Positions 13,253 through 63,130 of a stretch of DNA of 64,000 nt are shown here, piece after piece; the stretch's first letter is position 1; each line of letters opens with the position of its first letter. The translations under genes were made by a program, and so were the position numbers. Origin of the DNA: Somniosus microcephalus (taxonomy: Eukaryota); the NCBI GenBank assembly GCA_052327205.1, contig JBMRGM010000036.1:71672001-71736000 (forward strand), read 5' to 3'. Under the pieces are notes generated by a model that saw nothing but the letters and a program-made list of their open reading frames with translations, made no database searches and was not told where the DNA came from.

Positions 13253-16200
13253 GAGAGATTCACTGGAGCAGGAGATCGGAGACAGAGTGAGAGATTCACT
13301 GGGGAGGGAGATCGGAGACAGAGTGAGAGATTCACTGGGGAGGGAGATCGGAGACAGAGTGAGAGATTCACTGGGGAGGGAGATCGGAGACAGAGTGAGA
13401 GATTCACTGGGGAGGGGGATCGGAGACAGAGTGAGAGATTCACTGGGGAGGGAGATCGGAGACAGAGTGAGAGATTCACTGGGGAGGGAGATCGGAGACA
13501 GAGTGAGAGATTCACTGGGGAGGGAGATCGGAGACAGAGTGAGAGATTCACTGGGGAGGGAGATCGGAGACAGAGTGAGAGATTCACTGGGGAGGGAGAT
13601 CGGAGACAGAGTGAGAGATTCACTGGGGAGGGAGATCGGAGACAGAGTGAGAGATTCACTGGGGAGGGGGATCGCAGACAGAGTAAGAGATTCACTGGGG
13701 AGGGGGATCGGAGACAGTGAGAGATTCACTGGGGAGGGAGATCGGAGACAGAGTGAGAGATTCACTGGGGAGGGGGATCGGAGACAGAGTGAGAGATTCA
13801 CTGGGGAGGGAGATCGGAGACAGAGTGAGAGATTCACTGGGGAGGGAGATCGGAGACAGAGTGAGAGATTCACTGGGGAGGGAGATCGGAGACAGAGTGA
13901 GAGATTCACTGGGGAGGGAGATCGGAGACAGAGTGAGAGATTCACTGGGGAGGGAGATCGGAGACAGAGTGAGAGATTCACTGGGGAGGGGGATCGGAGA
14001 CAGAGTGAGAGATTCACTGGGGAGGGAGATCGGAGACAGAGTGAGAGATTCACTGGGGAGGGAGATCGGAGACAGAGTGAGAGATTCACTGGGGAGGGGG
14101 ATCGGAGACAGAGTAAGAGATTCACTGGGGAGGGGGATCGGAGACAGTGAGAGAGATTCACTGGGGAGGGAGATCGGAGACAGAGTGAGAGATTCACTGG
14201 GGAGGGAGATCGGAGACAGAGTGAGAGATTCACTGGGGAGGGAGATCGGAGACAGAGTGAGAGATTCACTGGGGAGGGAGATCGGAGACAGAGTGAGAGA
14301 TTCACTGGGGAGGGAGATCGGAGACAGAGTGAGAGATTCACTGGGGAGGGGGATCGGAGACAGAGTGAGAGATTCACTGGGGAGGGAGATCGGAGACAGA
14401 GTGAGAGATTCACTGGGGAGGGAGATCGGAGACAGAGTGAGAGATTCACTGGGGAGGGAGATCGGAGACAGAGTGAGAGATTCACTGGGGAGGGAGATCG
14501 GAGACAGAGTGAGAGATTCACTGGGGAGGGGGATCGGAGACAGAGTGAGAGATTCACTGGGGAGGGAGATCGGAGACAGAGTGAGAGATTCACTGGGGAG
14601 GGAGATCGGAGACAGAGTGAGAGATTCACTGGGGAGGGGGATCGGAGACAGAGTGAGAGATTCACTGGGGAGGGAGATCGGAGACAGAGTGAGAGATTCA
14701 CTGGGGAGGGAGATCGGAGACAGAGTGAGAGATTCACTGGGGAGGGAGATCGGAGACAGAGTGAGAGATTCACTGGGGAGGGAGATCGGAGACAGAGTGA
14801 GAGATTCACTGGGGAGGGAAATCGGAGACAGAGTGAGAGATTCACTGGGGAGGGAGATCGGAGACAGAGTGAGAGATTCACTGGGGAGGGAGATCGGAGA
14901 CAGAGTGAGAGATTCACTGGGGAGGGGGATCGGAGACAGAGTGAGAGATTCACTGGGGAGGGGGATCGGAGACAGTGAGAGATTCACTGGGGAGGGAGAT
15001 CGGAGACAGAGTGAGAGATTCACTGGGGAGGGGGATCGGAGACAGAGTGAGAGATTCACTGGGGAGGGAGATCGGAGACAGAGTGAGAGATTCACTGGGG
15101 AGGGGGATCGGAGACAGAGTGAGAGATTCACTGGGGAGGGAGATCGGAGACAGAGTGAGAGATTCACTGGGCAGGGAGATCGGAGACAGAGTGAGAGATT
15201 CACTGGGGAGGGAGATCGGAGACAGAGTGAGAGATTCACTGGGGAGGGAGATCGGAGACAGAGTGAGAGATTCACTGGGGAGGGAGATCGGAGACAGAGT
15301 GAGAGATTCACTGGGGAGGGAGATCGGAGACAGAGTGAGAGATTCACTGGGGAGGGAGATCGGAGACAGAGTGAGAGATTCACTGGGGAGGGGGATCGGA
15401 GACAGAGTGAGAGATTCACTGGGGAGGGGGATCGGAGACAAAGTGAGAGATTCACTGGGGAGGGAGATCGGAGACAGAGTGAGAGATTCACTGGGGAGGG
15501 AGATCGGAGACAGAGTGAGAGATTCACTGGGGAGGGAGATTGGAGACAGAGTGAGAGATTCACTGGGGAGGGGGATCGGAGACAGAGTGAGAGATTCACT
15601 GGGGAGGGGGATCGGAGACAGAGTGAGAGATTCACTGGGGAGGGAGATCGGAGACAGAGTGAGAGATTCACTGGGGAGGGGGATCGGAGACAGAGTGAGA
15701 GATTCACTGGGGAGGGAGATCGGAGACAGAGTGAGAGATTCACTGGGGAGGGAGATCGGAGACAGAGTGAGAGATTCACTGGGGAGGGAGATCGGAGACA
15801 GAGTGAGAGATTCACTGGGGAGGGGGATCGGAGACAGAGTGAGAGATTCACTGGGGAGGGAGATCGGAGACAGAGTGAGAGATTCACTGGGGAGGGAGAT
15901 CGGAGACAGAGTGAGAGATTCACTGGGGAGGGGGATCGGAGACAGAGTGAGAGAATCACTGGGGAGGGAGATCGGAGACAGAGTGAGAGATTCACTGGGG
16001 AGGGGGATCGGAGACAGAGTGAGAGATTCACTGGGGAGGGGGATCGGAGACAGAGTGAGAGATTCACTGGGGAGGGAGATCGGAGACAGAGTGAGAGATT
16101 CACTGGGGAGGGAGATCGGAGACAGAGTGAGAGATTCACTGGGGAGGGGGATCGGAGACAGAGTGAGAGATTCACTGGGGAGGGAGATCGGAGACAGAGT

Positions 16201-19200
16201 GAGAGATTCACTGGGGAGGGAGATCGGAGACAGAGTGAGAGATTCACTGGGGAGGGGGATCGGAGACAGAGTGAGAGATTCACTGGGGAGGGGGATCGGA
16301 GACAAAGTGAGAGATTCACTGGGGAGGGAGATCGGAGACAGAGTGAGAGATTCACTGGGGAGGAAGATCGGAGACAGAGTGAGAGATTCACTGGGGAGGG
16401 AGATCGGAGACAGAGTGAGAGATTCACTGGGGAGGGAGATCGGAGACAGAGTGAGAGATTCACTGGGGAGGGAGATCGGAGACAGAGTGAGAGATTCACT
16501 GGGAGGGAGATCGGAGACAGAGTGAGAGATTCACTGGGGAGGGAGATCGCAGACAGAGTGAGAGATTCACTGGGAGGGAGATCGGAGACAGAGTGAGAGA
16601 TTCACTGGGGAGGGAGATCGGAGACAGAGTGAGAGATTCACTGGGGAGGGAGATCGGAGACAGAGTGAGAGATTCACTGGGGAGGGGGATCGGAGACAGA
16701 GTGAGAGATTCACTGGGGAGGGGGATCGGAGACAGTGAGAGATTCACTGGGGAGGGAGATCGGAGACAGAGTGAGAGATTCACTGGGGAGGGGGATTGGA
16801 GACAGAGTGAGAGATTCACTGGGGAGGGAGATCGGAGACAGAGTGAGAGATTCACTGGGGAGGGGGATCGGCGACAGAGTGAAAGATTCACTGGGGAGGG
16901 AGATCGGAGACAGAGTGAGAGATTCACTGGGGAGGGAGATCGGAGACAGAGTGAGAGATTCACTGGGGAGGGAGATCGGAGACAGAGTGAGAGATTCACT
17001 GGGGAGGGAGATCGGAGACAGAGTGAGAGATTCACTGGGGAGGGAGATCGGAGACAGAGTGAGAGATTCACTGGGGAGGGGGATCGGAGACAGAGTGAGA
17101 GATTCACTGGGGAGGGGGATCGGAGACAGTGAGAGATTCACTGGGGAGGGGGATCGGAGACAGAGTGAGAGATTCACTGGGGAGGGGGATCGGAGACAGT
17201 GAGAGATTCACTGGGGAGGGGGATCGGAGACAGAGTGAGAGATTCACTGGGGATGGAGATCAGAGACAGAGTGAGAGATTCACTGGGGCGGGAGATCGGA
17301 GACAGACTGAGAGATTCACTGGGGAGGAAGATCGGAGACAGAGTGAGAGATTCACTGGGGAGGGAGATCGGAGACAGACTGAGAGATTCACTGGGGAGGG
17401 AGATCGGAGACAGAGTGAGAGATTCACTGGGGAGGGAGATCGGAGACAGAGTGAGAGATTCACTGGGGAGGGGGATCGGAGACAGAGTGAGAGATTCACT
17501 GGGGAGGGAGATCGGAGACAGAGTGAGAGATTCACTGGGGAGGGAGATCGGAGACAGAGTGAGAGATTCACTGGGGAGGGAGATCGGAGACAGAGTGAGA
17601 GATTCACTGGGGAGGGGGATCGGAGACAGAGTGAGAGATTCACTGGGGAGGGAGATCGGAGACAGAGTGAGAGATTCACTGGGGAGGGGGATCGGAGACA
17701 GGGTGAGAGATTCACTGGGGAGGGGGATCGGAGACAGAGTGAGAGATTCACTGGGGAGGGAGATCGGAGACAGAGTGAGAGATTCACTGGGGAGGGAGAT
17801 CGGAGACAGAGTGAGAGATTCACTGGGGAGGGAGATCGGAGACAGTGAGAGATTCACTGGGGAGGGGGATCGGAGACAGAGTGAGAGATTCACTGGGGAT
17901 GGAGATCGGAGACAGAGTGAGAGATTCACTGGGGCGGGAGATCGGAGACAGAGTGAGAGATTCACTGGGGAGGGAGATCGGAGACAGAGTGAGAGATTCA
18001 CTGGGGAGGGAGATCGGAGACAGAGTGAGAGATTCACTGGGGAGGGGGATCGGAGACAGAGTGAGAGATTCACTGGGGAGGGAGATCGGAGACAGAGTGA
18101 GAGATTCACTGGGGAGGGAGATCGGAGACAGAGTGAGAGATTCACTGGGGAGGGAGATCGGAGACAGAGTGAGAGATTCACTGGGGAGGGGGATCGGAGA
18201 CAGAGTGAGAGATTCACTGGGGAGGGAGATCGGAGACAGAGTGAGAGATTCACTGGGGAGGGGGATCGGAGACAGGGTGAGAGATTCACTGGGGAGGGGG
18301 ATCGGAGACAGAGTGAGAGATTCACTGGGGAGGGAGATCGGAGACAGAGTGAGAGATTCACTGGGGAGGGAGATCGGAGACAGAGTGAGAGATTCACTGG
18401 GGAGGGGGATCGGAGACAGAGTGAGAGATTCACTGGGGAGGGAGATCGGAGACAGAGTGAGAGATTCACTGGGGAGGGGGATCGGAGACAGAGTGAGAGA
18501 TTCACTGGGGAGGGAGATCGGAGACAGAGTGAGAGATTCACTGGGGAGGGGGATCGGAGACAGAGTGAGAGATTCACTGGGGAGGGAGATCGGAGACAGA
18601 GTGAGAGATTCACTGGGGAGGGGGATCGGAGACAGAGTGAGAGATTCACTGGGGAGGGAGATCGGAGACAGAGTGAGAGATTCACTGGGGAGGGGGATCG
18701 GAGACAGAGTGAGAGATTCACTGGGGAGGGAGATCGGAGACAGAGTGAGAGATTCACTGGGGAGGGGGATCGGAGACAGAGTGAGAGATTCACTGGGGAG
18801 GGAGATCGGAGACAGAGTGAGAGATTCACTGGGGAGGGAGATCGGAGACAGAGTGAGAGATTCACTGGGGAGGGGGATCGGAGACAGAGTGAGAGATTCA
18901 CTGGGGAGGGGGATCGGAGACAGAGTGAGAGATTCACTGGGGAGGGGAGATCGGAGACAGAGTGAGAGATTCACTGGGGAGGGAGATCGGAGACAGAGTG
19001 AGAGATTCACTGGGGAGGGGGATCGGAGACAGAGTGAGAGATTCACTGGGGAGGGGGATCGGAGACAGAGTGAGAGATTCACTGGGGAGGGGGATCGGAG
19101 ACAGAGTGAGAGATTCACTGGGGAGGGAGATCGGAGACAGAGTGAGAGATTCACTGGGGAGGGAGATCGGAGACAGAGTGAGAGATTCACTGGGGAGGGA

Positions 19201-21140
19201 GATCGGAGACAGAGTGAGAGATTCACTGGGGAGGGGGATCGGAGACAGAGTGAGAGATTCACTGGGGAGGGAGATCGGAGACAGAGTGAGAGATTCACTG
19301 GGGAGGGGATCGGAGACAGGGTGAGAGATTCACTGGGGAGGGGGATCGGAGACAGAGTGAGAGATTCACTGGGGAGGGAGATCGGAGACAGAGTGAGAGA
19401 TTCACTGGGGAGGGAGATCGGAGACAGAGTGAGAGATTCACTGGGGAGGGAGATCGGAGACAGAGTGAGAGATTCACTGGGAGGGAGATCGGAGACAGAG
19501 TGAGAGATTCACTGGGGAGGGAGATCGGAGACAGAGTGAGAGATTCACTGGGGAGGGAGATCGGAGACAGAGTGAGAGATTCACTGGGAGGGAGATCGGA
19601 GACAGAGTGAGAGATTCACTGGGGAGGGAGATCGGAGACAGAGTGAGAGATTCACTGGGGAGGGAGATCGGAGACAGAGTGAGAGATTCACTGGGGAGGG
19701 GGATCGGAGACAGAGTGAGAGATTCACTGGGGAGGGGGATCGGAGACAGTGAGAGATTCACTGGGGAGGGAGATCGGAGCCAGAGTGAGAGATTCACTGG
19801 GGAGGGGGATTGGAGACAGAGTGAGAGATTCACTGGGGAGGGAGATCGGAGACAGAGTGAGAGATTCACTGGGGAGGGGGATCGGCGACAGAGTGAAAGA
19901 TTCACTGGGGAGGGAGATCGGAGACAGAGTGAGAGATTCACTGGGGAGGGAGATCGGAGACAGAGTGAGAGATTCACTGGGGAGGGAGATCGGAGACAGA
20001 GTGAGAGATTCACTGGGGAGGGAGATCGGAGACAGAGTGAGAGATTCACTGGGGAGGGAGATCGGAGACAGAGTGAGAGATTCACTGGGGAGGGGGATCG
20101 GAGACAGAGTGAGAGATTCACTGGGGAGGGAGATCGGAGACAGAGTGAGAGATTCACTGGGGAGGGGGATCGGAGACAGAGTGAGAGATTCACTGGGGAG
20201 GGGGATCGGAGACAGTGAGAGATTCACTGGGGAGGGGGATCGGAGACAGAGTGAGAGATTCACTGGGGATGGAGATCAGAGACAGAGTGAGAGATTCACT
20301 GGGGCGGGAGATCGGAGACAGAGTGAGAGATTCACTGGGGAGGGAGATCGGAGACAGAGTGAGAGATTCACTGGGGAGGGAGATCGGAGACAGAGTGAGA
20401 GATTCACTGGGGAGGGAGATCGGAGACAGAGTGAGAGATTCACTGGGGAGGGGGATCGGAGACAGAGTGAGAGATTCACTGGGGAGGGGGATCGGAGACA
20501 GAGTGAGAGATTCACTGGGGAGGGAGATCGGAGACAGAGTGAGAGATTCACTGGGGAGGGGGATCGGAGACAGAGTGAGAGATTCACTGGGGAGGGAGAT
20601 CGGAGACAGAGTGAGAGATTCACTGGGGAGGGGGATCGGAGACAGAGTGAGAGATTCACTGGGGAGGGAGATCGGAGACAGAGTGAGAGATTCACTGGGG
20701 AGGGGGATCGGAGACAGAGTGAGAGATTCACTGGGGAGGGAGATCGGAGACAGAGTGAGAGATTCACTGGGGAGGGAGATCGGAGACAGAGTGAGAGATT
20801 CACTGGGGAGGGGGATCGGAGACAGAGTGAGAGATTCACTGGGGAGGGGGATCGGAGACAGAGTGAGAGATTCACTGGGGAGGGAGATCGGAGACAGAGT
20901 GAGAGATTCACTGGGGAGGGAGATCGGAGACAGAGTGAGAGATTCACTGGGGAGGGGGATCGGAGACAGAGTGAGAGATTCACTGGGGAGGGGGATCGGA
21001 GACAGAGTGAGAGATTCACTGGGGAGGGGGATCGGAGACAGAGTGAGAGATTCACTGGGGAGGGAGATCGGAGACAGAGTGAGAGATTCACTGGGGAGGG
21101 AGATCGGAGACAGAGTGAGAGATTCACTGGGGAGGGAGAT
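13253..21140 (+). repeat. 36-bp purine-rich satellite, ~7.9 kb, ~220 copies
   Basis: Unit gagagattcactggggaggg(a/g)gatcggagacagagt, highly homogeneous. Confidence 0.98.
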
Positions 21141-21802
21141 GGGAAGAGGTGTTAATTCCTCAGCTGCTGGCTGGGGGGAGTGTTGAGGATCTGGAAGGAG
21201 GGCAGTTTTCTCGAGCAGTCAGCGTGTGACTCGGGCCACAGCAGGAGCACGTACAGAATGAAAGTAGCTGGGTACGAAGCGAAGAAAATAGAAAAATATG
21301 TGTGTTGTGATTGACAGTTCATATATATATATGGGCGTGTGGGTGTATATTTATAAGGTTTAAATTCCTTACAAATACAATGTTGGCCTTTTTGGGTATG
21401 TGAAGCGTATTTTGGTTTTCAGTCAAGGGCACTTTGTACAGAGATGTGATAAAGAGTTGCATTCAATGGATGTTGTAAGTGTATAATTACAGACCTGTTC
21501 TTTACTCGATTAATCCTCTTTCTTGTTCTATTGATTTTTACCGGTTGCTTGCAGCTTTCAATGCATTCAGTAATGAGAATTAAGCTTTAATCCAGCGTAA
21601 TGCCAGATAAAGAGGTTCTGTGTAAGCAAAATCTTCCATTCAAGACCTGCCCACTCAACGATCTTTAGAATCTTCCATTTGTATTTTTAATGGAATCTAC
21701 GGTGAGACTTAACGCTTTCAGAGAGAGCTCGAGAACTCTCTGATTTCTGACCGCTCACCAGTGATTTTGAATTGGAAATGAGCGGAAGTTTCTGAACATG
21801 GT

Positions 21803-28784: not shown

Positions 28785-30405
28785 TGACAGTGCAGCACTC
28801 CCAGTGCTGCCCCTCCTACAGTGCAGCGCTCCCTTAGTACTGCCCCTCCTACAGTGCAGCGCTCCTCAGTACTGCCCCACCGACAGTGCGGCGCTCCCTC
28901 AGTACTGCCCCTCCGACAGTGCGGCGCTCCCTCAGTACTGCCCCTCCGACAGTGCGGCGCTCCCTCAGTACTGCCCCTCCGACAGTGCGGCGCTCCCTCA
29001 GTACTGCCCCTCCTACAGTGCAGCGCTCCTCAGTACTGCCCCACCGACAGTGCGGCGCTCCCTCAGTACTGCCCCTCCGATAGTGCGGCGCTCCTCAGTA
29101 CTGCCCCTCCGACAGTGCTGCACTCCCTCAGTACTGCCCCTCCAACAGTGCGGCGCTCCCTCGGTACTGCCCCTCTGACAGCGCAGTGCTCCCTCAGTAC
29201 TGCCCCTCCGACAATGCGGCGCTCCCTCAGTACCGCCCCTCCGACAGTGCGGCGCTCCCTCAATACTGCCCCTCCGACAGTGCGGCGCTCCCTCAGTACT
29301 GCCCCTCCGACAGTGCAGCGCTCCCTCAGTACTGCCCCTCCGACAGTGCGGCGCTCCCTCAGTACCGCCCCTCCGACAGTGCGGCGCTCCCTCAATACTG
29401 CCCCTCCGACAGTGCGGCGCTTCCTCAGTTCTGCCCCTCCGACAGTGCAGAGCTCCCTCAGTACTGCCCCTCCGACAGTGCAGCGCTCGCTCAGTACTGC
29501 CTCTGCGACAGTGCGGCGCTCCCTCAGTACCGCCCCTCCGACAGTGCAGCGCTTCCTCAGTTCTGCCCCTCCGACAGCGCAGAGCTCCCTCAGTACTGCC
29601 CCTCCGACAGTGCAGCGCTCGTTCAGTACTGCCTCTGCGACAGTGCGGCGCTCCCTCAGTACTGCCCCTCCGACAGTACGGCGCTCCCTCAGTACTGCCC
29701 CTCCGACAGTACGGCGCTCCCTCGGTACTGGCCCTCCGACAGTACAGCGCTCCCTCAGTACTTCCCCTCCGACAGTGCGGCACTCCCTCGGTACTGCCCC
29801 TCCGACAGTGCGGCGCTCCCTCAGTACTGCCCCTCCGACAGTGCGGCGCTCCCTCAGTACTGCCCCTCCGACAGTACAGCACTCCCTCGGTACTGCCCCT
29901 CCGAGAGTGCGGCACTCCCTCAGTACCGCCCCTCCGACAGTGCAGCGCTTCCTCAGTTCTGCCCCTCCGACAGCGCAGAGCTCCCTCAGTACTGCCCCTC
30001 CGACAGTGCAGCGCTCGTTCAGTACTGCCTCTGCGACAGTGCGGCGCTCCCTCAGTACTGCCCCTCCGACAGTACGGCGCTCCCTCAGTACTGCCCCTCC
30101 GACAGTACGGCGCTCCCTCGGTACTGGCCCTCCGACAGTACAGCGCTCCCTCAGTACTTCCCCTCCGACAGTGCGGCACTCCCTCGGTACTGCGGCACTC
30201 CCTCGGTACTGCCCCTCCGACAGTGCGGCGCTCCCTCAGTACTGCCCCTCCGACAGTGCGGCGCTCCCTCAGTACTGCCCCTCCGACAGTACAGCACTCC
30301 CTCGGTACTGCCCCTCCGAGAGTGCGGCACTCCCTCGGTACTGCCCCTCCGACAGTGCAGTGCTCTCTCAGTACTGCCTCTCCGACAGTGCGGCTCCTTC
30401 AGTAC
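28785..30405 (-). repeat. 33-bp SINE-derived minisatellite, ~49 copies
   Basis: Plus-strand unit cagtactgcccctccgacagtgcggcgctccct. Confidence 0.97.
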
Positions 30406-30961
30406 TGGCTCTAGGAGCGTTGGCCTAGATTTTTGTGCTCAAGTCTCTGGAGTGGGACTTGAACCCACGACCTTCTGACTCAGAGGCGAGAGTGCTCCCG
30501 ACTGAGCCACGGCTGACACTGACAGAGCTTGACCAGATGTTGGATATGTTTTCAGGTGTAGTTGAACTGTATGAAGCTTTAATGCACAAATGGAAGTGAA
30601 AAGTTCCTGAGAAAGAGCTCGGAATTGTACTAATTAGCAATTCCCTGTCCTCCCACTCTCCTGCCCCCAAAATCATCACGTTAATTCATAACAAGATGCA
30701 TGGCTGCAAAACAAAGAAAGTGTTTTTTAGCAGAACTGAGCCCAGGGGATTCGCTCCATTAAAATCACTTGATCCAAAGTTTTGTTTTTAAATTGAAAGA
30801 TCTGTGCAGTGATGAAATCTTTTGTGGTTGTGCAAAATTCTGCCCTTTTGTTGTGTCTTTCGGAGCAGTGGAACTCACGTCCGTCAATTAACAAAACAAT
30901 TCCCACCATCGCTGCTGACTGCCATTCTCCACCTCGACAACCCAAGGGAAGATTAAAATAA

Positions 30962-33900
30962 AGAAAGACTCGCATTTCTGTGGCATCCTTTCACGACCTC
31001 AGGACGTCCCAAAGCGCTTTACAGCCAATTAAGTACTTGTTTGAACTGTGGTCACTGTTGTAATGTGGGAAACGCGGCAGCCAATTTGCGCACAGCAATC
31101 TCCCACAAACAACAATGTGATAATGACCAAATCATCTGTTTTAGTGATGTTGGGTGAGGGATAAATATTGGTCCAAGACACCGGGGAGAACTCCCACTAT
31201 TCCTCTTCCAATAGTGCCATGGGATTTTTTACATCCACCCGAGAGGGCACACGGGGCCTCAGTTTAAAGTCTCATCTGAAAGACCCACCTTCGACAGTGC
31301 AGCACTCTCTCAGTACTGCCACTCCGACAGTGCGGCACTCCCTCAGTACTGCCCCACCAACAGTGCGGCGCTCCCTCAGTACTGCCCCTGCGACAGTGCG
31401 GCGCTCCCTCAGTACTGCCCCTTCGACAGTGTAGCGCACCCTCAGTACTGCCCTTCCGACAGTGCGGTGTTCCCTCAGTACTGCCCCTCCGACAGTGCGG
31501 CGCTCCCTCAGTACAGCCCCTCCAACAGTGCGCCGCTCCCTCAGTACTGCCCCTGCGACAGTGCGGCGCTCCCTCAGTACTGCCCCTTCGACAGTGTAGC
31601 GCACCCTCAGTACTGCCCTTCCGACAGTGCGGTGTTCCCTCAGTACTGCCCCTCCGACAGTGCGGCGCTCCCTCAGTACAGCCCCTCCAACAGTGCGCCG
31701 CTCCCTCAGTACTGTCCCTCCGACAGTGCGGCACTCCCTCAGTACTACCCCTCCGACAGTGCAGCGCTCCCTCCGTACTCGCCCTCTGACACTGCGCCAC
31801 TCCCTCAGTACTGCCCCTCCGACAGTGCGGCGCTCCCTCAGTACTGCCCCTCCTACAGTGCGGCGCCCACTCAGTACTGCCTCTCCGACAGTGCGGTGCT
31901 CCCTCAGTACTGCCTCTCTGACAGTGCGGCGCTCCCTCGGTACTGCCCCTCCGACAGTGAGGCGCACCCTCGGTACTGCATCTCCAACAGTGTGGCGCTC
32001 CCTCAGTACTGCTCCTCTGACAGTGCAGCATTCCCTCCGTACTGCCCCTCTGACAGTGCGGCACTCCCTCAGTACTGTCCCTCCGACAGTGCGGCGCTCC
32101 CTCCATACTGCCCCTCCGACAATGCGGCGCTCCCTCAGTACTGCCCCTCCGACAGTGCGGCACTCCCTCCGTACTGCCCATCTGACAGTGCGGTGCTCCC
32201 TCAGCACTGCCCCTCCGACAGTGCGGCGCTCCCTCAGTACTGCCCCTCCGACAGTGCGGCGCTCCCTCAGTACTGACCCTCCGACAGTGCGGCGTTCCCT
32301 CAGTGCTGCCCCTCCGACAGTGCGGCGCCCCCTCAGTACTGCCCCTCCGACAGATCGGCACTCCCTCAGTACTGCTCCTCTGACAGTGCAGCACTCCCGT
32401 AGAACTGCCCCTCCGAAAGTGCGGCGCTCCTTCAGTACTGCCCCTCCGACAATGCGGCGCTCCCTCAGTACTGTCCCTCCGACAGTGCAGCGCTCCCTCA
32501 GTACTACCCCTTCGACAGTGTGGCGCTCCCTCTGTACAGCCCCTCCGACAGTGCGGCTCTCCCTCAGTACTACCCCTCTGACAGTGCGGCGCTCCCTCAG
32601 TACTGCCCCTCCGACAATGCGGCTCTCCCTCAGTACTGCCCCTCCGACTGTGCGCCGATCCCTCAGTACTGCCCCTCCGACAGTGCGGTGCTCCCTCAGT
32701 ACAGCACCTCCGACAGTGCGCCGCTCCCTCAGTACTGCTCCTCTGACAGTGCAGCACTCCCGTACAACTGCCCCTCCGAAAGTGCGGCGCTCCCTCAGTA
32801 CTGCCCCTCCGACAGTGCAGCGCTCCCTCAGCACTGGCCCTCCGACACTGCCCCACTCCCTCAGTACTGCCCCTCCGACAGTGCGGCGCTCCCTCCGTAC
32901 TGCCACTCCAACAATGCGGCGCTCCCTCAGTACTGTCCCTCCGACAGTGCGGTGCTCCCTCAGTACTGCCCCTCCGACAGTGCCGCGCTCCCTCGGTACT
33001 GCCTCTCCGACAGTGTGGCGCTCCCTCAGTACTGCTCCTCTGACAGTGCGACACTCCCTCAGTATTGACCCTCCGACAGTGCGGCACTCCCTCAGTACTG
33101 CCCCTCCAACAGTGCGCCGCTCCGTCAGTACTGTCCCTCCGACAGTGCGGCACTCCCTCAGTACTACCCTTCCGACAGTGCAGCACTCCCTCCGTACTCG
33201 CCCTCCGACACTGCGCCACTCCCTCAGTACTGCCCCTCCGACAGTGCGGCGCTCCCTCAGTACTGCCCCTCCTACAGTGCGGCGCCCACTCAGTACTGCC
33301 TCTCTGACAATGCGGTGCTCCCTCAGTACTGCCCCTCTGACAGTGCGGCGCTCCCTCGGTACTGCCCCTCCGATAGTGCGGCGCTCCCTCGGTACTGCCC
33401 CTCCGACAGTGAGGCGCACCCTCGGTACTGCATCTCCAACAGTGTGGCGCTCCCTCAGTACTGCTCCTCTGACGGTGCAGCATTCCCTCCGTACTGCTCC
33501 TCTGACAGTGCGGCACTCCCTCAGTACTGTCCCTCCGACAGTGCGGCGCTCCCTCCATACTGCCCCTCCGACAATGCGGCGCTCCCTCAGTACTGCCCCT
33601 CCGACAGTGCGGCACTCCCTCCGTACTGCCCATCTGACAGTGCGGTGCTCCCTCAGCACTGCCCCTCCGACAGTGCGGCGCTCCCTCAGTACTGCCCCTC
33701 CGACAATGCGGCGCTCCCTCAGTACTGCACCTCTGACAGTGCGGCGCTCCCTTAGTACTGCCCCTCCGACAATGCGGCGCTCCCTCAGTACTGCCCCTCC
33801 GACAGTGTGGCACTGCCTCAGTACTGCCCCTCCGACAGTACGGCGCTCCCTCAGTACTGCCCCTCCGACAGTGCGGCGCTCCCTCGGTACTTCTCCTCTG

Positions 33901-34936
33901 ACCGTGCAGCACTCCCTCAGTACTGTCCCTCTGACAGTGCGACGCTCCCTCAGTACTGCTCCTCTGACAGTGCGGCGCTCCCTCAGTACTGCCCCTCTGA
34001 CAGTGCGGCGCTCCCTCAGTACTGCCCCTCCGACAGTGCGGCGCTCCCTCTGTACTGCACCTCTGACTGTGCGCCGATCCCTCAGTACTGCCCCTCCAAC
34101 AGTGCGGCACTCCCTCAGTACTGTCCCTCTGACAGTGCGCCGCTCCATCAGTACTGCCCCTCCGACAGTGCAGCACTCCCTCAGTACTGCCCCTCCGACA
34201 GTGCGCCGCTCCCTCAGTACTGTCCCTCCGACAGTGCGGCGCTCCCTCAGTGCTGCCCCTCCAGCAGTGCAGCGCTCCCTTGGTACTGCCCCTCCGACAG
34301 TGCGGCGCTCCCTCAGTACTGCCCCTCTGACAGTGCGGCGCTCCCTCAGTACTGCCCCTCCGACAGTGCAGCGCTCCCTCAGTACTGCCCCTCCGACAGT
34401 GCAACGCTTCCTCAGTACCGCCCCTCCGACAGTGCGACGCTCCCTCAGTACTGCTCCTCTGACAGTGCGGCGCTCCCTCAGTACCGCCCCTCCGACATTG
34501 CGACGCTCCCTCAGTACTGCCCCTCCGACAGTGCGGCGCTCCCTCAGTACTGCCCCTCCGACAGTGCGGCGCTCCCTCAGTACCGCCCCTCCGACAGTGC
34601 GACGCTCCCTCAGTACCGCCCCTCCGACAGTGCGACGCTCCCTCAGTACTGCCCCTCCGACAGTGCGGCACTCCCTCAGTACTGCCCCTCCGACAGTGCA
34701 GAGCTCCCTCAGTACTGCCCCTCCGACAGTGCAACGCTCCCTCAGTACTGCCCCTCCGACAGTGCGGTGCTCCCTCAGTACTGCCTCTCCGACAGTGCGA
34801 CGCTCCCTCAGTACTGCCCCTCCGACAGTGCGACGCTCTCTCAGTACTGCTCCTCTGACAGTGCGGTGCTCCCTCAGTACTGCCCCTCCGACAGTGCAGC
34901 ACTCCCATAGTACTGCACTGCAGTGTCAGCCTAGAA
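30962..34936 (-). mobile_element. SacSINE1-like DeuSINE, head truncated, with a 3.6-kb 33-bp array
   Basis: Tail and core at 30962-31290; cagtgtcagcctaga at 34921. Confidence 0.88.
31291..34915 (-). repeat. 33-bp SINE-derived minisatellite, ~110 copies
   Basis: Same unit, more diverged, with internal block duplications. Confidence 0.97.
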
Positions 34937-34962
34937 TCTCTGGGACAATGGCGCATCTGCAC

Positions 34963-35154
34963 TGATGTAAGAAAACTACTAGGCACTTGGTCTAAGCTTT
35001 AAACAAAGCTTTAATCAACTGTTTTACAAGATGGAGGTGTAGTTGTGTCCTTCACTAGTTCCTGTTAAGAATGCCCTGCGCAAGCTGGGCCCGTGCCCGA
35101 GTATTTATACTCTCCCTGGACAGCGCCACCCGTAGACCGCTCAGTATTATTTCA
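34963..35154 (-). repeat. Possible solo LTR of another Gypsy family
   Basis: TGATGTAA...TTATTTCA termini, TATAAATA and ATTAAA on minus, ~190 bp; no TSD found. Confidence 0.45.
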
Positions 35155-36677: not shown

Positions 36678-37370
36678 TTATGATCTGAAATTGTTGAACT
36701 CAATGTTGAGTCCGGAAGGCTGTAAAGTGTCTAATCGAAAGATGAGGTGCTGTTCCTCGAGCTTACGCTGAGCTTCCGTGGAATAATGCAAGAGGCCGAG
36801 GACGGAGAGGTCAGAGTGGGAATGGAGCGGAGAATTAAAGTGACAGGCGACTGGAAGCTCGGGGTCCCCCTTACGGACTGAACGGAGGTGTTCCGCAAAG
36901 CGGTCACCCAATCTGCGTTTGGTCTCCCCAATGTAGAGGAGACCACATCGTAAGCAGCGAATACAGTATACTAAATTGCAAGAAGTACAAGTAAATCGCT
37001 GTTTCACCTGGAAGGAGTGTTTGGGGCCCTGGACAGTGGGAAGGGGGGAGGTATAAGGGCAGGTGTTGCATCTCCTGCGCTTGCACGGGAAGGTGCCGGG
37101 CGAAGGGGAAGGGCTGTTGGGGGTGATAGAGGAGTGGACCAGGGTGTCGCGGAGGAAGCGGTCCCTTCGGAATGCTGAAAGGGGAGGTGAGGGGAGGATG
37201 TGTTTGGTGGTGAGATCATGCTGGAGGTGGCGGAAATAGCGGAGGATGATTCGTTGAATGTGGAGGCTGGTGGGGTGAAAGGTGAGGACAAGGGGAACTG
37301 TGTCGTGCTTCAGGGAGGGAGGGGCAGGGGTGAGGGTAGAAGTGCGGGAGATAGAACGGACACAGTCAAG
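36678..37370 (-). pseudogene. C-terminal part of a Penelope ORF with GIY-YIG endonuclease (open frame, RT lost)
   Basis: PLVLTFHP, PCKRRRCNTC, FTCTSCNLVYCIRCLRCGLLYIGETKRRLGDRFAEH, PVACHFN, LEEQHLIFRL..LQPSGLN. Confidence 0.92.
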
Positions 37371-37553
37371 GGGGGTGGGAGGAAGTATCTCCAGCATTTT
37401 CTGTTTTTTATTTCAGATTTCCAGCATCTGCAGTATTTTTTCTGTATTTATATAGCACCTTTAACATAGTAAAACATCCCAAGGTGCTTCACAGGAACAT
37501 AAACAGACAAAAATTGACACTTAGCCACATAAGGAGATATTAGGATAGGTGAC

Positions 37554-37785: not shown

Positions 37786-37800
37786 TTCACCCCTCCTTTT
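37786..37800 (-). promoter_or_regulatory. Polypurine tract AAAAGGAGGGGTGAA
   Basis: Immediately precedes the 3' LTR on the minus strand. Confidence 0.9.
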
Positions 37801-38006: not shown

Positions 38007-41000
38007 TTAAAAGTCCATTTTCAATCGGTCGACCGGATATCTTGTTCGTGTCGACCTTCTTAACCTTGGTGAAATTCCTTGCCCTCCCACACCAGGAGAC
38101 ACAGAAGTATCTTCTGCAGGAAGGCTATCCATATCCTGATTTTCAACGGTTTCCGGATTAGAAATCCCATCAGGAGGTAAACTGGGACGGTCATGAACAT
38201 CCATCGAGGGCTGACTAATAGAAGTATAATTATCTGCAGTCGGATTGGAAATATTCGTAGTATCTGTAACAGCATCCACATTATCTGAATCATGACTATT
38301 GTTAATATCCTCAGAAGAGGGCTGGCCACCACAAGGAGCCAAGTCTTTAATTGAAACGGTACTTTCTTTCCCATCTTGGAATCGAATATGAGCATATTGG
38401 GAATTTGCCTCCAACAGCTCCACCTCCTCCACTAAAGGATCATATTTTGACAATCTAACATGGCGTCGAAGCAGCACAGGTCCCTGCATAGTAAGCCATG
38501 AAGGTACCAAATATCCCGTAGTAGATCTCCGCGGATAGTTAAAGAGCCTTTCATGGGGGGTCACATTAGTAGCCGTTGAAAGCAATGATCTAATGGAATG
38601 CAGGGCATCAGGCAGTACCATTTCCCACTGTGTATTCTTAAGGTTCCGGGATGTCAAAGCCAACATAACTGCCTTCCAGATCACCCCATTGTATCGTTCG
38701 CACTGTCCATTACCCTGGGGATTATATGGGGTAGTTCTACTAGTAGAAATTCCCCGACTCTGAAGGTATTCCTTCAACTGGGAAGACATAAAAGAACTTC
38801 CCTGATCCGAATGGATATACGCAGGCATCCCAAAGATGACAAAAAGTTGAGTCAGACATTTGATAACTGTAGCAGCTGATACATCTGCGCAAGGAAAAGC
38901 AAAAGGGAACCTTGAAAACTCATCCACAACAGTAAATATATATCGGTTTTGAGTAGTTGAAGGAAGAGGCCCCTTAAAATCGACGCTCAAACGTTCAAAA
39001 GGAGAAGTAGCCTTTATAAGATGAGCTCGTTGAGGCTTAAAGAAATTCGGTTTACACCGAGCACAGATAGAACATGATGAAGTCATCCGCTTGACGTCTT
39101 CAACTGAAAAGGGCAAATTCTTACTGCGTACGAAGTGTATCATCCTCGTAACCCCAGGATGGCATAAGGCATTGTGAAGATTAATAAGCGTATCTCCGTG
39201 AATCACAGAACAATAAGCCCTCGACAGCGCATCAGCAGCAACATTACCCTTCCCCGGACGATAAAGTATATCAAAATGGTAACATGCCAACTCAATCCTC
39301 CACCTCATTATTTTATCATTCTTAATCTTTCCAAAATGTTTGACATCAAACATAAAGGATACAGGCCTAGAAATTCAGTGCCCTTAGCACCGGTTTTGCG
39401 GCGCTAGAGGGCCTAGCGCTGCAATTGGCGCCGGTTCCTAAATTGCCTGGCGCCCTTCCGTGGCGGTAGACCGGTAGCGCTGCGCCGGCACCGATGACGT
39501 CATCGGTGTGCGCAGCGTCCCGGTTGCCGTGGTAACCCGGCCCCAAGCCGAAATTCAGTTGCGGCCGCCTCGCCAGTGGCAGCCGCAACTAAGACTCCGG
39601 CAAACGAGTGTTGCCGGAGTCTGCGCCGGCGCTTTAAGGAGGCGCGGCGGCCGGCCGCTTTCCCGCCGTCCGCCTGCCCGCAGCTCCCTCCCCGGACTTC
39701 TCCCCCCCCCCCCCCCCCCGGAACAGATGCAAGCCCGGCACTTGTCCGAGGTGCCGGGCTCATTTTTGATGAGATTTGCGCGGGCCGCGGCCGGGTGCAG
39801 GCAGCTCCTCCTTAACGGAAGGAGGAGGCCTGCACTTCCCGAGCCTGCCGCACCGCAGCGGGCGCCGCAGCGCCGGAATAGCGCCGCAATGCGGCGCGTT
39901 GCGCCAGTTTTCAGGCGCTAAAACCCTTCAGTAGCGCCGGCAGCCGTTTGGGCGCGGCGCTACTGAATTTTTGGCGCGCGCAAAGGGCTTTAGCGCCGGC
40001 GCTAACTTCCGGCGCTAAAGCCCTGGCGCAGCGCAAACTCAATTTCTAGGCCACAGACTTTTGATCAGTTACCAACGTAAAATGTCGCCCCGATAAATAA
40101 TGTCTCCATTTACGCAGTGCTTCTACTATTGCATACGCCTCTTTCTCTATTGAAGAATGCCTTTTTTCACTATTGTTCAAGGTACGTGAGAAAAAGGCCA
40201 CAGGTCTTCCATTTTGGTTCAGAGTAGCCCCAATTGCAAAATCAGAAGCGTCCGTCTCAATCACAAAAGGAACCTGCTCATCAATAGAATGCATAACTGC
40301 TCCAAGGATATCCTTTTTAAAATTATCAAAACACGTCCTGGCCTCCTATGATAGAGGATATGTCGTAACCCGAATAAGAGGCCAGATCTTCTGTGAAAAA
40401 TTTGCAATCCAATTAGAATAATAAGAAAACAGTCCAACAACTCGTTGCAAAGCCTTAGAATTAGTAGGACAAGGTAAATCAATCAATGGTCGCAGACGTT
40501 CTGGATCTGGTTTAATCTTGTTTCCTGAGATAATATACCCCAATAGATTTACCTCAGTGGTCGAAAAGGTACACTTCTCTTTATTGAAAGTTAAACCAAC
40601 TTTTTCCGCAGCTTGACGGAATCTTTCTAAATTAGAATCATGCTCCACCCTTGATTTGCCACACACCGTGATGTCATCTAAGTATGAAAAGGTGTCAGAG
40701 AGAGAGTTATCACTTATAAAAGCATCCATTGCCCGTTGAAAACAAGCAACACCATTAGTAACACCAAATGGTATTCGGCAAAACTGATACAGCTTTCCAC
40801 CAGCCTCAAAGGCCGTATATGGTTGATCCTTCTTAACAATAGGAATCTGATGATAAGCACTCTTTAGGTCAATAGTGCTAAAAACCTTATACTGAGATAC
40901 TTTATTGATAAGCTCATCAATCTTAGGCAAAGGGTACGCATCTAATTGAGTATACCTATTAATAGTTTGGGAATAGTCTATCACCATTCGTTTCTTATGT

Positions 41001-42403
41001 CTCTCGTTAGTCGTGACAACTACCTGTGCCCGCCAAGGCGAACAACTAGGTTCAATGATTCCTTCCAATAAGAGACGTTGAACTTCAGAATTAATAAATT
41101 CTCTATCCTGACTGCTATACCTTCTTGACTTGGTAGCAATTGGCTTACAATCTGGCATCAAATTGGAAAAAAGTGATAATGGAGAAATGGATAAAGAGGT
41201 TAATCCACAAATAGATAAAGGTGGCTTAGTCCCTCCAAATGAAAGACTAAGAGACTCGTGTAACTGAAGCACATCATGACCAATCAAAATATCCGCACAG
41301 AGATTAGGCAAAACAGATAGGCGTATATCAGTATACGTATTACCTAGAAGAATCAATTTCACAAGGCAACAACCAGCTACTTGTGAAGTGAGAGCCGTCT
41401 GAGCCATACACACCTGATAGGAAACAGGCGAAATTTTCAAATGCTTCTCCTTTGCAAACTGAAGACTTATAAAACTCTCGGTACTGCCCGTATCTATAAG
41501 GGCCTTCACTTCCAACCCATTAACTTGGGCCGTAACTATAGCTTTGTTTAGGCCATGAGCAAATGCAGCAGAAATTGATGCAATAAACGCCCTATCTAAA
41601 GGCTGAATAGTCACAGAGGAGGTAATTGAACCTGATGATTTACACACACATGCGTAATGACCTCTCTTGCCGCATTTACTACACACAGCCTCCCGAGCAG
41701 GACACGTCAGACGAGGGTGCCGGACGTTCCCACAAAAATAACACTTCTGAATCCTAGAGGCAACAGCCGCTGAAGTAGAAACTGTTTCAGAATCTAGTAA
41801 ACCACTCCTATTAAGTCCACATAATTCCTTTTCATCCGGAACTGCCGAAACCACAGTCACAGGCCGATTAAAAAGAGCATAAGAATCCGAACTTCTCTGA
41901 GCCACATCCAATGTAGAAGCTTGCTCAAAAGCACTCTTAAGATCCAAAGTCTTATTTTCTAACAACCGCTGACGAATTGATCTAGACAGTAATCCATTAA
42001 TAAAAGCATCCCGTACCGATTCTTCCTTATATTCTTCAGCCGTCACGGCCTTATAATTACAGTTAACACTAAGGCACCGAAGTGCTTGTAAATAAGTATC
42101 CAAAGATTCTCCCACCTGCTGCCTACGGGCAGATAGAAGGTGACGTGCAAATACCTCATTCTTTGGTTTAACAAAAATCTTTTCCAATGTAGAAATAGCC
42201 ACTTCGTAAGTTTTACAGTCCAAAATATACTTATACACATCCAGAGCAATGTAGTTGATCAGCATATTCAGCTTATTTAGAGACTCTTGATCCAACACGC
42301 CCAAAAAGTTTTTAAATGTACAATACCAGTGTTTCCATTTATCATCCACTCCTGCAGAATTAGGGTCAGCATTGAATCGTTCTGGTTGAAGATATCGCTC
42401 CAT
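38007..42403 (-). pseudogene. gag-pol: gag-pol of element B (~1234 codons when reconstructed), broken by one TAG at 40346-40348 and a MITE
   Basis: CYFCGNVRHPRLTC and CSKCGKRGHYACVC, LIDTGS, YLDD, IETDAS, LHNALCHPG..CSIC, SVDFKG, HSDQG, CERYN; ORFs 40346..42403, 40046..40294 and 38007..39353 are in one frame once 692 nt (MITE plus TSD) are removed. Confidence 0.95.
39364..40052. mobile_element. GC-rich PIF/Harbinger-type MITE (689 bp)
   Basis: Perfect 12-bp TIR ggcctagaaatt/aatttctaggcc, 3-bp TSD aca, many tagcgc/gcgcta subterminal motifs; removal restores DQKSVSFMFD. Confidence 0.92.
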
Positions 42404-42424
42404 TCTGACATAAAGTTAATAAAT

Positions 42425-42656
42425 TGAAATAAAGAACAGATTTGCCTTTCTAATCTAGGCTTTATTAACTTAAAAATCCTGTAGCACATCTTTCAACACC
42501 CAGTCCCAACTAAAGGCTGGAAAGAACTGAATTTAAGATGGCCACCCACAAATCACATGACATCAACTACCAATGAGATTACAGCATATATCCCAAGGCA
42601 GGAAACAAACAAACAATCACAATACTTCTTACTAAACATAAAGAATAATCACCACA
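42425..42656 (-). repeat. 5' LTR of element B
   Basis: Direct repeat of 37554-37785. Confidence 0.97.
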
Positions 42657-43589
42657 GTGACCAAACGCTTGGTCAAAGAGATAGGTTTTAAGGGGCGTCT
42701 TAATGAAGGAGAGAGAAGTAGAGAGAGAGGAGAGGTTTAGGGAGGGAATTCCAGAGCTTAGGGCCTAGACAACTGAAGGCACAGCCGTCAATGGTGAAGC
42801 CAAGGAAGTGGGGGATGCTCAAGAGGCCAGAATTGGAGGAGCGCAGAGTTCTTGGAGGGTTTTCGGGCTGGAGGGGGTTACAGAGATAGGGAAGGATTTG
42901 AACACGAGGGTGAGAATTTCAGAATCGCGGCGTTGCCGGACTGGGAGCCAGTGTAGGTCAGCGAGCACAGGTGGGTGATGGGTGAACGGGACTTGGTGCG
43001 AGTTAGGACACAGACTGCAGCGGTTCAAGGGGAAGGTTCAGGGATGGGCAATAAATGCCGGCCTTGCCAGCGACGCCCACCTCCCAAGAACAAATTCAAA
43101 CAAAGACTGTTTTCTGAGTCAGTGCATAACAAGCTCTACAAGGAGCGGACCCAGTGTGTGCAGGTTGCCCAGTACTGGGACACATTTGGGTTAAAATTAA
43201 TTAGATGCAACACTGGCCTTCATTCCGGGTAATGAAGCAAAGCAGGTCAGCAACAGGAAGGTAGGAGGAAAAGTAGGGATGATTAATCACCGTATAATTA
43301 GCTGTAAAATTAAGAGAGGGAGATAGAAAAACAAAATGAAAAGCAATGTTGATTGATTGGGAAACTACAGAGGCATGATCGTGGACTTAGCTGGAATAAA
43401 TTGGAGGGGAAAAGTAAACTATTACAACAATGGAAAGTATTTAAATTGGAGATTAATACAGCTCAGTCTAGGTGCATTCTAATGAGGAAGGAGGGCTAGT
43501 GTTTAGAATCACGATTCCAGGGCTTAGGCTGAAAATAGAGGCTCAAAAAAAGAGCATATGATAAAGGTAATACGAGAGAGAGAGATGTG

Positions 43590-58984: not shown

Positions 58985-61900
58985 GATGTCCCAGACTCCA
59001 GACCCCAGACACTCCCAAACTGCTCCCAGACCCAAGCCACTCCCAGACCCTTAGACCCTCCCAGACCCCAGACATTCCCAGACCCAAGACACTCCCAGAC
59101 CCCAGCTCCCCCAGACCCTAGACACTCCCAGAACCCAGACACTCCCAGACCCCAGCCGCTCCCAGATCCCAAAAATTCCCAGACCCCAGACACTCCCAGG
59201 CCCCAGCCGCTCCCAGACCCCAGACACTCCCAGACCCAGACACTCCCAGACCCTCCCAGACACCAGCCTGCTCCCAAACCCCAAACACTCCCAGACCCCA
59301 GACACTCCCAGACCCCAGCCTGCTCCCAGACCCCAGACACTCCCAGACCCCAGACACTCCCAGATCCCAGACACTCCCAGACCCCAGACACTCCCAGACC
59401 CCAGACACTCCCAGGCCCCAGCCGCTCCCAGACCCCAGACACTCCCAGACCCAGACACTCCCAGACACTCCCAGACCCTCCCAGACACCAGCCTGCTCCC
59501 AAACCCCAAACACTCCCAGACCCCAGACACTCCCAGACCCCAAAAATTCCCAGACCCCAGACACTCCCAGGCCCCAGCCGCTCCCAGACCCCAGACACTC
59601 CCAGACCCCAGACACTCCCAGGCCCCAGCCGCTCCCAGACCCCAGACACTCCCAGACCCAGACACTCCCAGACCCTCCCAGACACCAGCCTGCTCCCAAA
59701 CCCCAAACACTCCCAGACCCCAGACACTCCCAGACCCCAGCCTGCTCCCAGACCCCAGACGCTCCCAGACCCCAGACACTCCCAGATCCCAGACACTCCC
59801 AGACCCCAGCCTGCTCACAGACCCCAGACACTCCCAGACCCCAGACATTCCCAGACCCCAGACACTCCCAGACCCCAGACCCCAGCCGCTCCCAGACCCC
59901 AGACACTCCCAGACCTCAGCCGCTCCCAGACCCCAGACACTCCCAGACCCCAAACACTCCCAGACCCCAGACACTCCCAGACCCCAGACACTCCCAGACC
60001 CCAGACACTCCCAGACCCAAGACACTCCCAGACCCCAGACCCCAGCCGCTCCCAGACCCCAGACACTCCCAGACCCCAAACACTCCCAGACCCCAGACAC
60101 TCCCAGACCCCAGACACTCCCAGACCCCAGACACTCCCAGACCCAAGACACTCCCAGACCATGGACACTCCCAGACCCCAGACACGCCCAGACCCCAGAC
60201 ACCTCCAGACCCCAGACACCTCCAGACTCCATACCCCAGACACTCCCAGACCCCAGACACTTCCAGACCCCAGCTGCCCCCAGACACTCCCAGACCCCAG
60301 ACCCTCCCAGACGCTCCCAGACCCCAGCCGCTCCCAGGCCCCAGACACTCCCAGACCTCAGCCGCTCCCAGACCCAGACACTCCCAGAACCCAGACACTC
60401 CCAGAACCCAGACACTCCCAAACCCCAGTCACTGCCAGACCCCAGACACTGCCAGACCCCAGACACTGCCAGACCCCAGACACTGCCAGACCCCAGACAC
60501 TGCCAGACCCCAGACACTCCCAGACCCCAGTCGCTCCCAGATTCCAGATGCTCCCAGACACTCCCAGAACCCAGATACTCCCAGACCCCCGCCGCCCCCA
60601 GACACTCCTAGACCCCAGACACTCCCAGACTCCAGACCCCAGTTGCTCCCAGACTCCAACCGCTCCCAGACCCAAGCTGCTCCCAGACCCCAGACAGTCC
60701 CAGACTCCAGCCTGCTCCCAGACCCCAGACACTCCCAGACCCCAGACACTCCCAGACCCCAGACACTCCCAGACCCAAGACACTCACAGACCTCAGATAC
60801 TCCCAGACCCCAGACACTCCCAGACACTCCCAGACCCCAGACACTCCCAGACCCCAGACACTCCCAGACCATGGACACTCCCAGACCCCAGACACGCCCA
60901 GACCCCAGACACCTCCAGACTCCAGACCCCAGACACTCCCAGACACCTCCAGACTCCATACCCCAGACTCTCCCAGACCCCAGACACTCCCAGACCCCAG
61001 ACACTCCCAGACCCCAGCTGCCCCCAGACCCCAGACCCTCCCAGACCCCAGACACTCCCAGACCCCAGCCGCACCCAGACCCCAGTCACTCCCAGACCCC
61101 AGACACTCCCAGAACCCAGACACTCCCAGACCTCAGCCGCTCCCAGACCTCAGCCGCTCCCAGACCCAGACACTCCCAGAACCCAGACACTCCCAGAACC
61201 TAGATACTCCCAGAACCCAGACACTCCCACACCCCAGTCGCTCCCAGACCCCAGACACTCCCAGACCCCAGACACTCCCAGACTCCAGACACTCCCAGAG
61301 CCCAGACACTCCCAAACCGCAGTCACTCCCAGACCCCAGACACTCCCAGACCCCAGACACTCCCAGACCCCAGACACTCCCAGACTCCAGACACTCCCAG
61401 AGCCCAGACACTCCCAAACCGCAGTCACTCCCAGACCCCAGACACTCCCAGACCCCAGACACTCCCAGACCCCAGACACTGCCAGACCCCAGACACTGCC
61501 AGACCCCAGACACTGCCAGACCCCAGACACTGCCAGACCCCAGACACTGCCAGACCCCAGACCCCAGACACTCCCAGACCCCAGACACTCCCAGACCCCA
61601 GACACTGCCAGACCCCAGACACTGCCAGACCCCAGACCCCAGACACTCCCAGACCCCAGTCGCTCCCAGATTCCAGATGCTCCCAGACACTCCCAGAACA
61701 AAGATACTCCCAGACCCCCGCCGCCCCCAGACACTCCTAGACCCCAGACACTCCCAGACCCCAGTCGCTCCCAGACCCCAGCCGCTCCCAGACCCCAGCC
61801 GCTCCCAGACCCCAGACCCTCCCAGACCCCAGCCGCTCCCAGACCCCAGACCCTCCCAGACCCCAGACTCTCCCAGACCCCAGACACTCCCAGAGCTCAG

Positions 61901-63130
61901 CCGCTCCCAGACCCCAGACGCTCCCAGACCCCAGACACTCCCAGACCCCAGCCACCCCCAGACCCCAGACCCTCCCTGACCCCAGACATTCCAGACACTC
62001 CCAGACCCCAGTCGCTCCTAGACCCCAGACAGTCCCAGACCCCAGCCGCTCCCAGACCCCAGACACTCCCAGACCCCAGACACTCCCAGACCCCAGACAC
62101 TCCCAGACCCCAGACCCCAGTCGCTCCCAGACCCCAGACACTCCTAGACCCCAGACGCTCCCAGACCCCAGACATTCCCAGACCCCAGACACTCCCAGAC
62201 CCCAGACACTGCCAGACCCCAGACACTGCCAGACCCCAGACACTCCCAGACCCCAGACACTCCCAGACCCCAGCTACTCCCAGAGCCCAGACACCTCCAG
62301 ACCCCAGTCGCTCCCAGACTCCAACTGCTCCCAGATCCCAGCTGCTCCCAGACCCCAGACTGTCCCAAACTCCAGCCTGCTCCCAGACCCCAGACACTCC
62401 CAGACTCCAGTTGCTCCCAGACTCCAACCACTCCCAGACCCCAGACACTCCCAGACCCCAGACACCTCCAGACTCAGGACCCCCAGACACTCCCAGACCC
62501 TAGTAGCTCCCAGACCCCAGACGCTCCCAGACACTCCCACACCCCAGACACTCCCAGACCCCAGCCGCTCCCAAACCCCAGACACTCCCAGAGCCCAGCT
62601 GCTCCCAGAGCCCAGCTGTTCCCAGATCCCAGAATCTCCCAGAGCCCAGCCGCTCCCAGACCCCGGCCTGCTCCCAGACCCCAGCCTGCTCCCAGAGTCC
62701 AGCCGCTCCCAGGCCCCAGCCGCTCCCAGGCCCCAGCTGCTCCCAGAGCCCAGCCTGCTCCCAGACCCCAGCCTGCTCCCAGAGTCCAGCCGCTCCCAGA
62801 CCCCAGCCTGCTCCCAGAGTCCAGCCGCTCCCAGACCCCAGCCTGCTCCCAGAGCCCAGACACTCCCAGATCCCAGCCGCTCCCAGGCCCCAGCCGCTCC
62901 CAGAGCCCAGACACTCCCAGACCCCAGCCGCTCCCAGGCCCCAGCCGCTCCCAGAGCCCAGACTCTCCCAGACCCCAGCCGCTCCCAGACCCCAGTAGCT
63001 CCCAGGCCCAACCATTCCCAGACCCCAACTGTTCCCAGGCACCAGACCCTGCTAGGCACCAGACCCTCCTAGACCCCAGACCCCATACACCAGCCACTCC
63101 CAGACTCCAACTGATCCCAGACCCCAGACC
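58985..63130 (+). repeat. 17-bp C-rich satellite built on CCCAGA, ~4.1 kb, heterogeneous
   Basis: Unit actcccagaccccagac with variants such as gctcccagaccccagcc; 17-aa period in translation equals 3 units. Confidence 0.97.

Follow-up and report, generated by a model that had tools for sequence, protein, structure and literature searches.

Results

The window analyzed in this study is a 64,000-nucleotide stretch of the Somniosus microcephalus genome (contig JBMRGM010000036.1, positions 71,672,001 to 71,736,000). It contains a retrotransposon on the minus strand, delimited by comparison of its 5' LTR (42656-42425) with its 3' LTR (37785-37554). Both LTRs are 232 bp long, run from TG to CA and are identical at 231 of 232 positions, with one mismatch. 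The element is flanked by the target site duplication GTCAC (left copy 42657-42661, right copy 37549-37553), and a polypurine tract (37786-37800) adjoins the 3' LTR. One frame (40346-42403) encodes gag, protease and reverse transcriptase (RT), and the integrase part of pol lies at 38007-39353; Pfam analysis identified protease, RT and integrase. The paired TG...CA LTRs, purine tract and target duplication are those of a Ty3/Gypsy element, as is the domain order (protease, RT, RNase H, integrase), with RNase H called in relatives. The RT carries the motif YLDD and was closest to Ty3 RT among solved structures (E 4e-31). A preliminary description of this DNA had noted two CCHC motifs in gag, which were found as two CX2CX4HX4C motifs, and the lack of a recognizable chromodomain, which was borne out by the absence of a chromodomain match in Pfam at E ≤ 0.001 across 38010-39353. 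Its assignment of a single open reading frame did not hold for the window copy, which is broken: the frame stops at 40346, and pol is split by 689 bp of inserted DNA (39364-40052) bounded by 16-bp terminal inverted repeats. The assignment did hold for other copies in the genome, with many copies displaying open frames of 1238 or 1251 aa. The LTR-leader junction of the window element was present in 732 exact copies in the 6.4-Gb genome, and the top copies of the family were 99% identical. The window family is large and young.

Several other features were observed at the locus and elsewhere in the genome. The insertion in pol is GC-rich and MITE-like, with an apparent 3-bp duplication (TGT), and similar copies were identified at two further loci, L306 (within a fold-back insertion described below) and L316. 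Beside the 3' LTR lies a 239-aa frame (36678-37397), which resembles the GIY-YIG end of a Penelope-like element. A decayed Gypsy element occupies 940-4728 on the minus strand; we presume from its gag features that it is Mag-like. Long minisatellite arrays cover 13000-21200, 29200-35000, 51000-52400 and 59000-63000, with a 33-bp unit near 30000-35000, and yield long spurious frames. Tandem runs of the element with a spacing of approximately 4.2 kb were found at G000:C11:99243673-99277513 (nine junctions on C11) and on C804; these either resemble tandem Tf arrays or represent an assembly effect.

The region between the 5' LTR and gag was examined for a primer binding site. The end of the LTR is separated from the gag ATG (42403) by 21 nt, and no TGG is present at the LTR edge. 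One base past the LTR (A, 42424) begins an 11-mer, TTTATTAACTT (42423-42413), that is the exact reverse complement of AAGTTAATAAA at 42471-42461 in the LTR. We refer to the 11-mer as the primer site, a designation based on the read-through copies described below, and to the LTR sequence as the arm, the predicted self-primer, for which the evidence is covariation. The last six bases of the arm (42466-42461) are AATAAA. Thus, the preliminary description was correct as to the 21-nt leader, the lack of a TGG-type site, the perfect 11-nt complementarity to the LTR and the poly(A) hexamer in the arm. In the remaining leader (42404-42412), T 42412 faces T 42472 and becomes A in variant copies. A short second helix (42444-42460) can be drawn between GCCT (42460-42457) and AGGC (42447-42444), starting from the first base past the predicted cut. 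Analyzed by energy, pairing in the window copy alone was within chance (z = 0.19; 112 of 200 shuffles folded equally well), and the case for pairing rests on relatives and on aberrant copies. Folding also revealed a competing hairpin inside the LTR of the window copy and a fragile main duplex, the probability of which ranged from 0.29 to 0.97 depending on the stretch folded. When the RNA was started 11 nt before the cut, folding gave the duplex a probability above 0.5 in 26 of 29 families.

To examine covariation, relatives were collected by gag alignment, which provided 80 metagenome loci (the best 80 of 119), seven genome-bin contigs and 60 loci from the same genome; the top copies within the window family are too alike for this purpose. 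Of these 147 loci and the window (148 in total), 21 were dropped (16 without a gag start and five with less than 110 nt upstream), leaving 127 loci in 33 families. The longest perfect stem was then sought without anchoring to the LTR end. A perfect duplex of at least 12 bp was present in 78 of the 127 loci and, counted by family, in 27 of 33. In all 27 of these families the 3' arm begins one base past CA. In a shuffle control (n = 396), 0.8% reached 10 bp and none was in register. The LTR end was verified by a second LTR in four families including that of the window (the others being L032/L034, L035/L037/L038 and L094), as well as in L238. No in-register duplex of 9 bp was found in four of the 33 families (L061, L075, L081 and L093). 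In 29 families the in-register stem reached at least 9 bp; among these, the arms of a family paired with each other over 14.1 bp on average compared with 4.3 bp for arms combined across families. Pairing exceeded permutation at positions 4-13 from the inner end (P ≤ 0.0002), weakly at 14-15 and not from 16 onwards; each family was represented by its longest-stem member, which inflates the outer positions. Compensatory covariation between the two 11-mers had been set beforehand as the test of the pairing, and these data provide strong evidence for it.

Further features of the pairing were scored in these 29 families. The loop measured 24-72 nt, the leader before the ATG 14-53 nt with one of 99 nt, and the spacer between LTR and primer site was A in 27 families. 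The hexamer A[AT]TAAA was in or overlapping the arm in 23 families, and five families retained the duplex although the scan upstream of the site revealed no such hexamer. Purines peaked 10-12 nt before the cut, preceded by T-rich bases, as at a start site. The AG located 10-11 nt before the cut was considered as a splice acceptor and set aside: several families have GAG, pairing runs on upstream and no joints were seen in reads. A second abundant family in the genome (L141-L170) has a leader of approximately 100 nt and a 14-bp duplex, and a paired change from C-G to T-A was present in three of its 30 copies.

We also examined whether further helices accompany the main duplex. The sequence immediately past the arm begins with RCC in 24 of 29 families, and a GGY partner accompanies it in 21. 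Directly after the arm, a helix of at least 4 bp starts in 21 of 29 families, compared with a mean of 5.8 and a maximum of 13 in 500 shuffles. Other start offsets gave such a helix in 5-14 families, so the excess is real but modest. In the window copy the second helix had P ≤ 0.02, and folding energy does not favor it. One of two Tf1-like flanking duplex types was also tested, a pairing between the loop and the downstream leader; it showed no excess (P = 0.69) and was discarded.

Aberrant insertions were identified by searching for the 11-mer followed by other sequence, which gave 72 matches (70 examined) and a further 20 matches (all examined). Eight of these 90 (L248, L260, L265, L272, L318, L281, L288 and L306) consisted of LTR, A, primer site and then the LTR running backwards to base 1, between 5-bp duplications. 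Where compared, the flanks of these fold-backs were not palindromic, which argues for integrase-type insertion of folded-back cDNA and against palindromes of the host. Among 20 long stretches retrieved, seven more copies were duplication-bounded elements in which the sequence folds back and then switches to a different part of the element. In L274, L279 and L294 the reversed sequence continues past the purine tract and enters the interior. L255 carries the 11-mer after a 3' LTR, followed by unrelated DNA; this tail resembles the primer-site tail on Tf1 cDNA, the 3' end of which is extended by a copy of the primer site that about half of the cDNAs keep, according to the available text of PMC11042837. 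The aberrant insertions show that the plus strand exits the LTR at the primer site and that the sequence copied there is LTR-derived. The fold-backs locate the primer site and its letters; they do not identify the source of the RNA, since strong-stop DNA made after any primer of the same sequence would fold likewise.

Single-base changes next to the primer site were then compared between leader and arm. Base 12 is a T-T mismatch in the window subfamily. A change of leader base 12 from T to A, matching the arm, was found in 21 of 70 variant copies, while T to C and T to G with an intact leader were each found in none of the 70; most altered leaders differed only at base 12-14. In one copy (L273) the A at base 12 is unmatched to its own arm. 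The T-to-A copies lie on two LTR haplotypes that are common to unchanged copies (20 of 21 aligned). The correction is rare, with 21 copies against 732 unchanged junctions, at least 83 of which have a matching arm. Of these 83, 40 were examined for the reverse change, that is, in the arm and confined to the 5' LTR; six had no 3' LTR in the span, and the change was found in one of 34 scorable copies, the other 33 having inherited the arm change in both LTRs. This one-way change (21 of 70 versus 1 of 34) indicates that information flows from arm to site.

A protein search identified 845 relatives at E ≤ 1e-30. Named hosts among the best 120 were Hydra, sea anemone, soft coral, fluke, aphid, damselfly, spider and crustaceans; no chromodomain was listed among the Pfam domains of these 120, and no relatives were found in viral contigs. 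Elements of the clade were also observed in seven bacterial genome bins (L171-L177), most likely as host contamination. RT identity was 59-70% within the clade compared with 30-32% to the chromodomain-bearing elements of the same genome, and RT identity to the single Mag-like element in the window was 31%, with a long branch and an uncertain placement in a quick RT tree. In that tree, which comprised 36 rows without fungal or plant chromoviruses and without named Cigr-1, Tf1 or sushi sequences, the eight chromoviruses of the genome formed their own branch (SH-aLRT 98). The window element is not a member of the Tf1/sushi group. Two loci from further families of the clade in this genome, L238 (4619-8347) and L241 (5633-9477), have YLDN instead of YLDD and an RT 60-62% identical to that of the window element; pairing between LTR and site is kept in L238 with one mismatch. 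A chromodomain seemingly inside L238 was traced to an adjoining chromovirus on the other strand.

As a control, we analyzed 10 stretches around chromodomain matches. An 11-nt perfect self-match of the sushi type was present in three (L245-L247) and a 9-nt match in two more. The primer site in L245-L247 lies one base past CA and the matching LTR stretch approximately 150 nt upstream; thus, a group known to be self-primed uses the same register as the window clade.

Discussion

The preliminary description had inferred that this element primes itself, and two lines of evidence support the inference: primer site and LTR arm change in lock-step among relatives, and LTR-derived sequence lies beyond the LTR end in aberrant insertions. 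We consider self-priming very likely when both of its forms are taken together, namely by a 5' piece of the RNA or by the arm as copied in the 3' LTR. The first form, Tf1-like priming by a piece of approximately 11 bases of the element's own RNA that carries the poly(A) signal, is in our judgment the probable one.

In this model, transcription would start approximately 11 nt before the cut, near 42471; such a start is suggested by the rarity of the base-12 correction and by the purine peak 10-12 nt before the cut. The arm would then pair with the site one base past the LTR, as the conserved pairing indicates, and, by analogy with Tf1, the RNase H of the element would probably cut the RNA at AAUAAA|GCC, beside the small conserved helix. 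The predicted cut leaves the 3' end of the primer on the LTR edge. As the aberrant insertions show, the plus strand runs past the LTR end into sequence of the LTR arm. Rewriting of the site from the arm explains why the two change in lock-step. Only in the 5' LTR would this pairing also hide the putative poly(A) signal. For an RNA beginning at position 11, matches at positions 12-15 would not be expected; occasional longer copying could preserve them. RNA reads from a related species (two runs) were dominated by read-through of many LTR copies, and in these read-through-dominated data starts did not accumulate at the arm, the loose ends displayed carried no poly(A) tails, and neither a cut site nor a poly(A) site was seen.

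An alternative form of self-priming, in which the primer is the 3' LTR copy of the arm, located at the distal end of either the same RNA or a partner, and no short 5' piece serves, seems unlikely to us. It would account for pairing that reaches 13-15 nt whatever the start site, and for L274, L294 and L279, which consist of LTR, site and the reverse complement through U3, purine tract and interior. Such long copies could, however, also arise from strong-stop DNA annealing to another plus-sense molecule. A long primer would give the plus strand no natural stop, yet leaders are mostly altered at base 12-14, and the duplication-flanked fold-backs end at LTR base 1.

Even less probable is that the duplex serves only to hide the poly(A) signal of the 5' LTR, with priming left to a protein or to a small RNA such as a tRNA fragment. 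The hexamer lies in or over the arm in 23 of 29 families and the pairing can form at the 5' LTR alone, as masking would predict. However, masking needs no inner end fixed one base past CA, which was the case in 27 of 27 families; five of 29 families have the duplex without the hexamer, and read-through copies continue into LTR sequence after the site.

Two further explanations have very little probability. A host tRNA end or half-tRNA as primer, with an incidental LTR match, would follow the rule for elements outside Tf1/sushi (available text of PMC6317226), but there is no TGG at the LTR edge, and the site varies by family together with each family's own LTR, so that no single tRNA fits; this cross-family change largely refutes the idea. 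In a comparison limited to 29 Cys and one Lys host tRNA genes, no match of at least 6 nt to the leader was found. Mutation by template switching at inverted repeats is an established process, and during host replication it might produce corrections and fold-backs at an imperfect repeat whose pairing has no role in copying; we give this scant credence, since all eight fold-backs reach base 1 of the LTR and lie between 5-bp duplications of the integrase type, the corrections go one way (21 of 70 versus 1 of 34) and the fixed register would be left unexplained.

Tf1-like self-priming thus remains our preferred reading, and the window clade can be compared with elements for which such priming is described. 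As reported in the available portions of PMC4600332, PMC10085805, PMC6317226 and PMC11042837, Tf1/Tf2 of Schizosaccharomyces pombe, Tj1 and the Tf1/sushi group likewise have no tRNA site and pair a site right past CA with the LTR over approximately 11 nt. In contrast to Tf1/sushi, the window clade lacks a chromodomain, bears a poly(A) hexamer in the arm, has a loop of 24-72 nt against about 150, and is present in cnidarians, flatworms and arthropods. Where the Tf1 'pretzel' has two flanking duplexes, the window clade has a small post-cut hairpin. Self-priming has similarly been predicted from sequence in more than one plant lineage, Tcn1 (Gypsy) and TAR (Copia), according to the available text of PMC6317226; unlike the window clade, these are chromoviral and Copia elements, respectively, of plant hosts. 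We regard the mechanism as a known one that is likely at work here in an unrelated, widespread clade.

A candidate label for this clade is Cigr-1. The anatomy of Cigr-1 (LTRs of approximately 245 bp and one open reading frame of approximately 1,200 aa) fits LTRs of 232 bp and frames of 1238-1251 aa, and on this basis the label is a lead. Cigr-1 is a Ty3/Gypsy clade found in Ciona and in molluscs and annelids, and the available text of PMC6238403 and PMC8556966 states nothing on its priming.

No description of self-priming in a non-chromoviral animal Gypsy clade was found in the literature covered, which did not extend to key papers and Repbase Reports. An earlier description is possible, because Repbase entries use the word self-primed. 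In the available portions of the sources that we found on the subject, self-priming is tied to Tf1/sushi, Tcn1 and TAR (PMC3601003, PMC6317226, PMC11117352, PMC6238403, PMC2871265, PMC4600332, PMC6934838, PMC5006619, PMC7472051, PMC3670739, PMC2774666, PMC11042837, PMC10085805, PMC8556966). With this background, we tentatively suggest that a single 11-base RNA may combine start site, poly(A) signal and primer in an undescribed, animal-wide, self-primed Gypsy clade outside the chromoviruses: pairing would silence the 5' poly(A) signal, cutting would remove it, and copying of the primer would rewrite the site to match the LTR.

If true, a large and unrelated self-primed clade in cnidarians, flatworms, arthropods and a vertebrate would imply either several origins of self-priming or an ancestral state. 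This question bears on whether tRNA priming came late, as has been proposed (available text of PMC3601003). Self-primed elements would also escape control by tRNA fragments, and would be missed by search programs in which a tRNA site is mandatory. Insertions with fold-backs, together with one-way corrections, offer a route to priming chemistry from the genome alone.
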